Assembly: GCA_963805625.1 (NCBI GenBank)
Contig: CAWDVE010000025.1
Location: 1-64,000 of the forward strand
Direction: 5' to 3'
DNA length: 64,000 nucleotides
Source: an uncultured Candidatus Rokubacteria bacterium
Lineage (GTDB): Bacteria > Methylomirabilota > Methylomirabilia > Rokubacteriales > DASRDR01
The notes under the pieces are model-generated. The model had not been told where the DNA came from. It saw only the letters and a program-made list of their open reading frames with translations, and made no database searches. A program made the translations under genes and the position numbers. Positions 11,833 to 14,745 of this stretch are shown in pieces. Numbering within the stretch: the first letter of the stretch is position 1; each line of letters opens with the position of its first letter.

Positions 11833-11861
11833 GTGACAATCTATCTCTGTAGAGATATCAT
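11833..11861 (+). promoter_or_regulatory. Promoter with palindromic operator upstream of the XRE gene
   Basis: GTGACA-N17-TATCAT with perfect inverted repeat TATCTCT-GT-AGAGATA (11842-11857) between the boxes. Confidence 0.6.
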
Positions 11862-12063
11862 GAGCGCTAAGAGACTGAGCGTGGCGATTCGACAGGCACG
11901 AGAGCAGAAGGGCCTGAGCCAAGCGGAGCTCGCGAAGCGGGCGAAGGTGGCGCAGGGATACATCTCCGATCTCGAGGCTGGCGGCAAGAAGAACCCGGGC
12001 ATCGATGTGCTGAAGCGTCTCGCCAAGGCCCTCGGCGTGCCGGTGGCGAAGCTGCTGGGGTGA
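11860..12063 (+). CDS. XRE-family HTH transcriptional regulator
   Basis: IRQAREQKGLSQAELAKRAKVAQGYISDLEAG..NPGIDVLKRLAKALGV. Confidence 0.9.
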   Translation: MSAKRLSVAIRQAREQKGLSQAELAKRAKVAQGYISDLEAGGKKNPGIDVLKRLAKALGVPVAKLLG

Positions 12064-12081
12064 AGGACGGAAGGCGCGTGT

Positions 12082-12106
12082 GTTGGGGCGCGCAGGCGCC
12101 CCCAAC
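12082..12106. terminator. Hairpin between convergent genes
   Basis: GTTGGGGCGC..GCGCCCCCAAC. Confidence 0.45.
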
Positions 12107-12115
12107 GGCAGTGTC

Positions 12116-12466
12116 TCAGTTCGAGGGGGGCCTATTCCAAGGGGTGACCCGTATCCTGGCGACGGCGTCAGGATCTTCGGATTTGATCCGGGCGGAGAAC
12201 CTAGTGCCGAGCGGCACGTGCTCATAGACTTGCAAGGCTACTTGTGGGGGTTGCATTGAAGTCCGTGGCTGGACCTCGGTCGGCTTGGTGCGGGATACCT
12301 CACGGCCCGATGGCCCTGTGGCCCATTCGACAAGGATAGTGCGGCGCGCTTGAGACCACACCGTGACCGTATAGCCCTCAGCGTCTTCCGGGCATGAGGC
12401 GAGAACCTCGGTCCATGCCCCCCAGGTGTCGAGACGGGTCGATCCGCGAACATCCGCAGCCGCCAT
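12116..12466 (-). CDS. Hypothetical protein (116 aa, lower GC)
   Basis: ORF from ATG 12466 ending at the hairpin; no recognised motif. Confidence 0.4.
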   Translation of the reverse strand: MAAADVRGSTRLDTWGAWTEVLASCPEDAEGYTVTVWSQARRTILVEWATGPSGREVSRTKPTEVQPRTSMQPPQVALQVYEHVPLGTRFSARIKSEDPDAVARIRVTPWNRPPSN

Positions 12467-12617
12467 GGCCTGAGTATGACACGGGCGGGTACTGAGGACG
12501 ACCTGGCGTGGTGCTGCTGTCGCCGGGTCGGTTGGCAAGTATGGACTGGTCAGTGCCGGTGACGGCGCTGCTGGAGTGAAGCTGCTGTGCTTGCTCGCAC
12601 CTCACGGGAGGATGGTA

Positions 12618-12805
12618 ATGAAACCCCTGACCGATTTCATCGTGAGTTGGGGTCCCATGCTCCTTTTCGTTGGGATCTGGTTCTGTTTCATGAAGAGAGG
12701 CCCCTGGATATCCGAGAACACAAGCAGAACGAACGGAGTCAGCAGCACATGGAGAAGGTTGAGCGTCTCTTGGAACGAATCGCGACGGCGTTAGAGCGTC
12801 GGTAG
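12618..12805 (+). CDS. Small membrane protein resembling FtsH TM2 plus coiled coil (one frameshift)
   Basis: GGAGG RBS; IVSWGPMLLFVGIWFCFMKR, continuing in another frame as QHMEKVERLLERIATALERR*. Confidence 0.6.
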
Positions 12806-12912
12806 GGAATGAAGAAGACGCCCCGCGCGGTGGTTGCGACACTGCTGGAGCCGGGCCGAGGACGACCTCGCGCCGCGGATGGCGGCGCTGGAGCTGTGAG
12901 GAAGGACTAGTC

Positions 12913-13242
12913 ATGGCACGAGGACTGACCGGACCACGTGGAGTGAAGGGTGCGCGGGGTCAACGCGGGGGCGTCGGACTGACAGGACCTCCGGGCCCGC
13001 CTGGACCTCCCGGGATCGAGGGCATGCGAGGCGTCACGGGAGCCAGAGGCGCCAGGGGTGCCACCGGGCGACAGCGCGTCATCACGAAAGTGAGCCGGAA
13101 ACTCACGATCCGGATGATCGAACACCTAGATTGTGAGATGAGCGCGGTGCACAAGGCCCTGGAGACGCAACTCATCCGGATCGCGCAGATTCAGCAGCAG
13201 TTGGACGAGCTCCGCGCGAGGGTGGGCGCTGAAGGTCGATAG
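12913..13242 (+). CDS. Short collagen-like protein (17 Gly-X-Y triplets + C-terminal coiled coil)
   Basis: GLTGPRGVKGARGQRGGVGLTGPPGPPGPPGIEGMRGVTGARGARGATGRQ; AAGGA RBS. Confidence 0.8.
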   Translation: MARGLTGPRGVKGARGQRGGVGLTGPPGPPGPPGIEGMRGVTGARGARGATGRQRVITKVSRKLTIRMIEHLDCEMSAVHKALETQLIRIAQIQQQLDELRARVGAEGR

Positions 13243-13329
13243 GGGATGCGCCATGATCGCCGCCGTCTACGCCTGCACGGCGACCGCGCCGCACGGATGG
13301 CGGCGCTGAAGCTGTGAGTCTTGGCTCCG

Positions 13330-13473
13330 CTAGATGGGTTGTGGCTCGCCACCGGACAAGAAGAAGTCCGTCGGCCCAGCGTACAGGACCTCATGCGCCA
13401 GGTCCTCCGGGGTCAGGACGCGCTCGATGCGGGGCGGCTCGTAGGGTGGGGCAATCGGGGGCGTCTCGGCCAT
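13330..13473 (-). CDS. 47-aa RiPP-precursor-like peptide (not in the ORF track)
   Basis: AAGGAGG RBS; MAETPPIAPPYEPPRIERVLTPEDLAHEVLYAGPTDFFLSGGEPQPI*. Confidence 0.6.
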   Translation of the reverse strand: MAETPPIAPPYEPPRIERVLTPEDLAHEVLYAGPTDFFLSGGEPQPI

Positions 13474-13556
13474 GGGGGGCGGTCCTCCTTGGGTGGGGTG
13501 GGTGGGGGCAGGCTATCACGGCATCGCGGTTCAGGCGACGCGGGGAGGGGAGACTG

Positions 13557-14745
13557 ATGGGCGCGATCTATCGCCCGAAGTACCAGGGCGGCACGGGGTG
13601 ACGCAAGTCTCCACCGTGTGGTGGGTGCGCTTCCGCCAGCACGGCAAGACGCTCCGGCAATCCGCGGAGACGACCTCGGAGGCGAAGGCCCGAGCGTTTC
13701 TGCGGGAGCGTGAGGGGAAGGTGGCCCTCAACATCCCGGTCAACGTCGAAGCGGACCGGCTGACGCTGGGCGAGGCCGCCGACGTGATCCGGAACGACTA
13801 CACCGCGAACGGCCACAAGTCCGCGGGACACCCTGGAGCTCCGGCTCACACATCTGCTCGCGCACTTCGGCGCCGCCACGCGGCTGAGTCGGATCACCAC
13901 CGGCCACGTGGAGCACTACAAGGTCGCTCGGCTCGCCAAGCCCGTCACCCTGCCGGCGACGAAAACGCTCCGCGTCGAGTCGCCCGCCCGACCTCCGAAG
14001 CTCACGTCGTCCGCTACCGTCAACCGCGAGATCGCCATCCTCGCCCGGATGGGGTCGCTGGCCCGGCGCCAGCACGGGCTCGCGGTGCCGTTCATGGTCG
14101 AGAAGCTCAAGGAACGGAATGCCCGGGAGGGTTTTTCGAGGAGGCGGCGTTCCTGGCGGTCTGTCGCCTGCTCCGCCCGGAGGTTGCGGCGCTCGCGACG
14201 GTGGGGAACCTCACCGGCTGGCGCAGTCGGAACTCCGCTCTCGCCAGTGGCGCCACGTTGACTTCGGCGCCGGCTGGAAGCGGCTTGAGCCCGAGGAGAC
14301 GAAGAACCGGGAGGGGCGCATGTTCCCCCTGATCCCCGAGCTCCGGGCGGTCCTCCAGGCGCAGCGCACGCGCGTGGAGGCGCTCCAGACGGCGACGGGC
14401 CAGGTGATCCCGTGGGCGTTCTGCCGGGACAACGGCGCCCCGGTGGGCGACTTCAAGAAGGCGTGGACGACCGCGCGGATCAAGGCCGGCGTCCCCGGGC
14501 GGCTCTTCCACGCCTTCCGGCGGACCGCCGTCCGCAACCTGATCCGCGCGGGGATCCCGGAGACGGTCGCGATGAAACTAACGGGCCACCGAACGGCCGT
14601 GTTCCAACGCTACGCGATTGTGGAAGAGGGGATGCTCCAGGAGGCGGGCGCCCGCCTCGCGGCGGCTGGGCTCGCCGGGGGTGCCGGGGGCAAGAGTGGC
14701 AAAGACAGGCGGAGAAGTGCAAAGTCGCCGCACTTGCCCCGCTGA
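13557..14745 (+). pseudogene. Island tyrosine integrase (frameshifted)
   Basis: [58 protein letters not shown]; several frameshifts. Confidence 0.88.

Follow-up and report, generated by a model that had tools for sequence, protein, structure and literature searches.

How do unrelated small genes come to stand in a row between a regulator and a recombinase, with fragments of gene ends repeated at their junctions? The question is raised by a locus in the window, a stretch of 64,000 nucleotides from an uncultured Candidatus Rokubacteria bacterium that corresponds to contig C25 of its genome (G000; 7.27 Mb, 28 contigs). Here a gene for an XRE-family regulator is followed by a slot with four small genes in mixed orientation, as the initial annotation had described them, the second being split over two overlapping frames, and then by a tyrosine integrase gene (Table 1). 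That annotation took the recurring gene ends for the recombination handles of a new, integron-like system that swaps small accessory genes under XRE control. Our comparisons, made on assembled contigs from public runs and a genome collection rather than on raw reads, indicate that the locus is a member of a Rokubacteriales family of tRNA-integrating islands and is not an integron. We consider it rather probable that stubs of the two genes flanking the slot serve as crossover arms of 30-50 bp, at which related islands exchange cargo by general recombination, that arrays grow by rarer joins with homology on one side, and that the stubs, together with a derived motif, are used again.

The tail of the XRE gene (12037-12065; handle A) recurs inside the slot at 12553-12581 with 25 of 29 positions matching, above the best of 60 dinucleotide shuffles (22). 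The second repeat of the initial annotation, 24/25 between 12876-12900 and 13294-13318, extends to 33/38 (12863-12900 and 13281-13318), and at both lengths again exceeds all 60 shuffles (best 20 and 27 respectively); we call it handle B. Its second copy is fused to handle D, a stub of the start of a large serine recombinase gene, a resemblance that had been noted and for which an intact parent gene is present in this genome. The D-B fusion recurs at C10:237399, 1973056 and 1333551 (C numbers denote contigs of this genome) and in three loci (L010, L011, L081) of the mapped set, which comprises 63 fetched loci and 17 regions of the genome itself. The 11-mer reported at 12494 and 12858 is present as well, but on its own it stands at chance level, a perfect 11-mer repeat being found in 57 of 100 shuffles; its copy at 12858 adjoins B, and the match of one relative's contig ends at 12490. 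Near-identical contigs from public runs (near 100%) span the A stub, B and the D-B junction, one of these runs possibly being the window's source sample, and misassembly of the array is therefore unlikely.

No parent gene was found for B, and its origin as the tail of an integrase or of another gene is thereby rejected. B matches the XRE tail at 19 of 25 positions, a level reached in 3 of 2000 shuffles, and probably derives from A. Within the order it is restricted to the genus (G000, G004, G013), matches with three mismatches elsewhere being at control level; it is also present in three metagenome contigs, and 19 contigs from public runs hold it with unlike flanks and a sharp right edge at 12899-12901. 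One 8-mer of B is over-represented (z 10.5). The idea that A is an over-represented word of the Chi or uptake type was rejected, no such 8-mer being found in its core.

The array lies at the right end of a 13-kb island spanning a tRNA-Val gene and a 46-nt copy of its 3' end. Recurrence of the motifs beside different short open reading frames, which the initial annotation had proposed as a check, was found both in relatives and in this genome, at about ten further places beside XRE, recombinase or peptide genes. All ten genome-collection records with motif A belong to Candidatus Rokubacteria or Methylomirabilota, and the A tail pattern is present in 38 of 182 other genomes of the order against 0 of 68 genomes of other orders, many of the genomes being incomplete; three patterns gave 0 matches in viral contigs. 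The mapped loci follow a single plan, in which a slot lies between an XRE gene and a recombinase gene of the large serine or the tyrosine type. The slot is empty in L072 and L080, where XRE abuts the recombinase, holds a single cargo in L054, L056 and L084, and in the remaining loci carries arrays with A, D, D-A or D-B junctions; D is joined directly to A at a short microhomology in L107, and a different XRE gene is directly followed by an A stub and cargo at C17:54011, L063, L077 and L087. Stubs are concentrated in the slots, with 26 in 21.7 kb of 19 slots (one on the reverse strand) against one in 48 kb of control sequence, and a motif-blind check of this genome places a stub within 1.6 kb downstream of seven of the eight top XREs and of none of eight control XREs. 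Of 20 internal XRE remnants, 19 comprise the tail only (starting at 145-173 of 198), which corresponds to about 14 of 15 independent events; the length of D stubs is mostly 22-62 nt, with ends often at 33-38 nt.

When relatives are compared, the cargo proves to be decoupled from the genes on either side. The 39 full XREs give 741 pairs; the five with a common first cargo all have XRE bodies at background identity (0.55-0.60, median 0.58), and the cargo is unrelated in all eight pairs whose XRE-body identity is at least 0.8. As for the recombinase, L054 and L084 agree at 0.96 in cargo and 0.69 in recombinase, L054 and L078 at 0.91 in recombinase and 0.55 in cargo. With XRE and recombinase masked, a Usp cargo and a 94-aa cargo were found in both orders. 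In an unmasked all-against-all comparison of loci, 82 of 235 distinct ends of homology blocks fall at any motif (null 22.7, maximum 39) and 51 of 204 at internal stubs (null 11.5, maximum 26). L081 and C10:237k, for instance, agree through the D-B junction and diverge from its last base, and L087 and C17 have XRE and stub in common and different cargo. The initial picture of a variable locus with conserved gene termini at its junctions is borne out.

Handle A is conserved at the DNA level within its parent gene. In a tail-blind sample of 18 XREs (the tail left out of the query; taken from the 30 loci returned of 38 matches), silent-site identity in codons 58-63 is 0.75-1.0 against an expected 0.37-0.44; codons 2-53 are near expectation, silent sites being saturated across the XRE body, and the constraint peaks sharply over about 18 nt. 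A single coding of LGVP is used in 13 of 15 tail-blind XREs and, across the whole genome, in 15 of 124 cases. One tail codon reads GAN in all 38 matches outside the genus and in none of the 32 within it, and XRE bodies are not clustered by host (13 changes against 13.9 when shuffled). The tail thus appears to follow host lineage rather than XRE type, a pattern of the kind expected from repeated conversion among co-resident paralogues.

We propose the following course of events. The cargo would be replaced by crossing over within A, the XRE tail, and D, the start of the recombinase, and repeated exchange would homogenise A within a host lineage. More rarely, two islands would be joined, the D end of the first to the A end of the second, by homology at one side of the junction and microhomology at the opposite side; this would add a gene and leave a D-A, A or D stub behind. 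Such stubs, and the derived motif B, would then become new swap points at which arrays are reshuffled piecewise. Same-strand cargo would be expressed from the autoregulated XRE promoter, and the part of the recombinases would be confined to moving the island as a unit at its tRNA site (tRNA-Val or tRNA-Glu). Motifs that we take to be RecA- and Ku-like are present in the genome, and LigD domains in the window (Pfam); both count in favour of the proposal.

Several observations weigh against this proposal. D is not conserved beyond the constraint on its protein (0.55 observed, 0.55 expected, in 17 start-blind recombinase genes) and was rejected as a site constrained at the DNA level. Internal stubs are not the site of 153 of the 204 block ends, many cargo junctions are stub-free, and, because the loci were mostly fetched by their motifs and include several near-copies, the significance of stub density and block ends is overstated. 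The XRE tree, built on 52 columns only, is poorly resolved, and distant homologues of cargo 1 and cargo 3 occur in handle-free contexts. Neither exchange, nor a circle, nor dependence on an enzyme was observed in the contigs; the joints in public run X6 are short-sided and come from other genomes, and are therefore not evidence of excision in this strain. Mid-length XRE remnants at array heads and longer recombinase remnants exist, so that plain decay also acts. Finally, the ends of the stubs are less scattered than random illegitimate joining would predict, which general recombination does not fully explain and which keeps a site-specific reading alive.

Decay could in principle be the whole story: islands would stack in tandem at a tRNA site, deletions would eat into the superfluous recombinase and the second XRE as far as the cargo, and the stubs would be passive scars without a later role. 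Many tRNA-Glu fragments show stacking of serine-recombinase islands, two different islands stand behind the same tRNA-Val, and the window holds other long pseudogene pieces besides the longer remnants; some stubs probably do arise in this way. Scarring leaves unexplained, however, why loci agree as far as an internal stub and diverge beyond it, why cargo is found in swapped order, why the tail is homogenised in intact XREs, why internal remnants are so regularly tail-only, and where B, parentless and of sharp extent among unlike flanks, comes from, and we think it a somewhat unlikely account of the array. A different reading of A starts from its silent sites, whose conservation would fit a signal in cis that is kept for expression of the next gene (an internal promoter, a protein-binding site or an mRNA element), recombination being incidental; A is always found immediately 5' of cargo, and the first cargo mostly shares its strand. 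Yet stubs have no promoter-like or terminator-like site, an Rfam scan gave a single match at chance level, and folding is weak (z -0.5 and -0.7 for D-B, -2.0 and -2.6 for the first B copy). The XRE operators, moreover, are located 5' of the gene and vary from one XRE type to another, the handles of cargo 1 and cargo 4 are on the strand opposite to these genes, and the lineage-wide sweep of one tail codon suggests conversion, all of which makes such a signal very improbable.

Site-specific recombination would account for the sharp constraint on A, the sharp right edge of B, the preferred ends of D stubs and the direct repeats that bracket single genes in the window. In its integron-like form, a recombinase of the island or the host would recognise A or B, excise circles of A, gene and D, and insert them behind XRE. 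Integrons are defined by IntI, attI and attC, and the likeness lies in an array of small single-gene units beside a tyrosine recombinase; mechanistically, the comparison made by the initial annotation is not supported. The intact C13 paralogue, 77.5% identical to the window's integrase, has no IntI match, only weak XerA/XerC matches in NCBIfam and, in PHROGs, a generic phage integrase match (for the broken frames in the window itself, the scan was with Pfam only), and a simple pattern scan found no R''/R' pair on either strand, in agreement with the earlier remark that attC palindromes were not seen. Stub boundaries vary over about 30 nt, a spread seen at their left ends, and D-B spacing varies; the stop codon goes with the cargo in 7 of 9 groups, and A is too conserved for fine mapping of crossovers. 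No covarying hairpin was found in 16 copies of B, A and D as inverted ends match at chance level (1416 of 2000), and the inverted match between B and D is weak (44 of 2000). The integrase, which is co-oriented, stands downstream of the array, and the same handles are shared by islands with serine and with tyrosine recombinases, each having its own tRNA attachment (att) site, tRNA-Glu or tRNA-Val; D itself was rejected as the serine recombinase's att, since the 3' end of that gene overlaps a tRNA-Glu copy. We regard an integron-like system as decidedly unlikely. It is also unlikely that the locus represents a dedicated cassette system of a non-integron kind, in which the last 30-40 bases of the repressor gene would be a site recognised by an enzyme, single genes would move as circles with this site at their ends, B would be that site freed from its coding role in the genus, and arrays would grow and reorder behind an autoregulated promoter.

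As to XRE control of the accessory genes, it is plausible for same-strand cargo, judging from a predicted promoter and palindromic operator. A single promoter-like site was found in 11700-13700, upstream of XRE (shuffle mean 0.2), and autoregulation of the slot appears plausible because most of the 39 full XREs carry, as judged by eye, a TTGACA-like box and a palindrome of their own at the same place before the start codon. Operators differ across XRE types and are common within a type, which makes them a natural set for pairing recognition helix with operator, and promoter and start codon are close enough together to suggest a leaderless mRNA.

Table 1. Features of the cargo slot and of the ends of its island, in window coordinates
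Feature	Position	Strand	Remarks
tRNA-Val(CAC)	1561..1636	+	left end and integration site of the 13-kb island
Predicted XRE promoter with palindromic operator (operator 11842-11857)	11833..11861	+	directly 5' of start codon
XRE-family regulator, 67 aa, left flank of slot	11860..12063	+	Pfam HTH_3, E 1.6e-19; PADLOC capH/control-protein-like
Handle A, parent copy (XRE 3' tail), conserved at DNA level	12028..12063	+	silent-site and lineage comparisons
Cargo 1, 116-aa protein, no known family	12116..12466	-	4 homologues
Motif (c), 11-mer, first copy	12494..12504	+	possibly left part of a decayed B; chance level alone
Handle A, stub copy (XRE tail only)	12553..12581	+	27/27 to XRE tails C13:436863, C10:1972296, C10:1334231
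Cargo 2, small coiled-tail membrane protein in two overlapping frames	12618..12805	+	weak match to FtsH transmembrane segment
Motif H, recurring intergenic	12817..12832	+	present at other junctions too
Handle B, first copy, non-coding, no parent gene found	12863..12900	+	probably derived from A
Cargo 3, collagen-repeat and coiled-coil protein, 109 aa	12913..13242	+	Pfam Collagen, E 1.2e-8; 6 matches including itself
Handle D, stub of large serine recombinase start	13253..13285	+	intact 566-aa parent at G000 C10:1973599
Handle B, second copy, fused to D (D-B junction)	13281..13318	+	repeat of first B copy
Cargo 4, 47-aa peptide, conserved leader and variable tail	13330..13473	-	70 homologues; 5 copies in genome
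Tyrosine integrase, frame breaks in assembly, right flank of slot	13558..14745	+	Pfam Phage_integrase; 77.5% nt identity to intact C13 paralogue
att remnant, 46-nt copy of tRNA-Val(CAC) 3' end	14778..14823	+	45/46 to 1591-1636; right end of island

The cargo is mostly unannotated, with Pfam matches in 12 of 81 cargo-region proteins (3 of the 81 lying upstream of the slot), and none of 47 cargos gave a match to anti-phage defence in PADLOC 2.0, which leaves room for defence genes of kinds not yet recognised. Cargo 1 has no match in Pfam, NCBIfam, PHROG or PADLOC, and Atlas gave leads under 0.9 only. Cargo 2 is probably one frameshifted gene, and a public contig reads identically to the window across this region (12626-12854). 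Each of the five copies of the cargo 4 family in this genome, which include C10:237491-237592, 366132-366432 and 524203-524301, stands directly behind a copy of B, on islands; the family has a near-invariant leader and a hypervariable tail of 8-14 aa, is without a Pfam or NCBIfam match, and resembles, we presume, the precursors of ribosomally synthesised and post-translationally modified peptides. Motif H is a GC-rich leader motif found at several cargo junctions without A, B or D stubs (L011, L060, L073, L077, L082, L173). Assembly errors may lie behind some of the integrase's frame breaks: single-base indels appear in public contigs at 13588, 13856, 14127 and 14400, and two of these fall at gaps in the alignment with the intact paralogue.

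The left part of the island (2203-11836) holds decayed pieces of IS110, SDR, DUF2071 and DUF72, together with DUF748, ferritin-like DUF892, YihY/BrkB-family and split LigD domains. Window positions 1-1637 are 100% identical to C13:15840-14204 up to tRNA-Val, beyond which the two contigs carry different islands, with integrases 77.5% identical; these are either strain variants or tandem islands of which one is excised in part of the population. Fragments resembling tRNA-Glu are numerous (C10:1.94-2.12 Mb, C11:22921, C13, C14, C16, C17, C19, C24 and C1, and window 3872-3900), which suggests heavy stacking of serine-recombinase islands. Elsewhere in the family, L173 and L175 are complete tyrosine-integrase elements of 11-14 kb (L173:5088-15851 and L175:35-12069, both on the minus strand), which share several genes of no known family. 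They look like satellites, since they carry primase/helicase genes and, in L175, an excisionase, a module that the window's island is without; no capsid match was found among the scanned proteins.

To call the system new was an overstatement: as proposed, it works like phage linker sequences, displacement arrays and the promoter and stem-loop cassettes (PeSLs) of phages. The literature searched, in which subscription journals are mostly not covered, supplements aside, holds no description of this island family, and the comparisons that follow rest on the available parts of the accounts cited. PeSLs are regulatory cassettes of T4-type lytic phages, short conserved repeats that stand in variable regions between small unknown genes; the authors proposed them as sites of homologous recombination and likened them to integrons, with mini-circles shown (PMC2839356). 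Here too short repeats stand between small genes where relatives diverge, but the handles are coding gene ends in chromosomal islands, without promoter or terminator at the stubs, and are known from contigs only. Exchange of modules by general recombination at short conserved flanks is likewise what phage linker or boundary sequences stand for (PMC3029335; Botstein model, per PMC2839356), the difference being that the flank in our islands is a repressor gene tail, apparently homogenised within host lineages, whose copies accumulate inside the array.

Arrays of type VI secretion system immunity genes in V. cholerae, and of Rhs orphans, have been proposed to grow by homology-facilitated illegitimate recombination that leaves a 3' remnant of the displaced gene, ordinary homologous replacement being the commoner event (PMC5361080). 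Our islands, too, have a displaced gene's 3' remnant in front of a retained gene, at the four loci where a different XRE precedes an A stub; unlike in those arrays, the displaced genes are a regulator and a recombinase, the cargo consists of unrelated small genes, and no pairing of toxin and immunity is evident from annotation. The P2/P4 hotspots, finally, are slots of 1-2 kb between two conserved genes, with fast turnover decoupled from core genes (PMC9122126, PMC13586616). Our slots resemble them in size, in turnover and in being decoupled from their flanks, and two full elements carry primase/helicase, one of them also an excisionase; they differ in that 0/47 cargos match PADLOC, junction handles are visible and two recombinase classes share the slot.

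What these islands may add can be put briefly. The fast turnover of cargo in phage and island hotspots is stated to be unresolved (PMC9122126), and conserved boundary sequences are said to be unidentifiable at most mosaic junctions (PMC3029335), in the available parts of both accounts. Here the putative swap points are visible, order-wide and quantifiable, in the form of a 30-nt coding tail that appears to be under concerted evolution, its stubs and a probably derived non-coding handle, and the handles are defined substrates of 30-50 bp for comparing short-homology with site-specific exchange. For the Rokubacteria, in which numerous integrases and high genomic heterogeneity have been reported (PMC5712423, as far as its available part goes), the swap-point model would offer a route to that heterogeneity.

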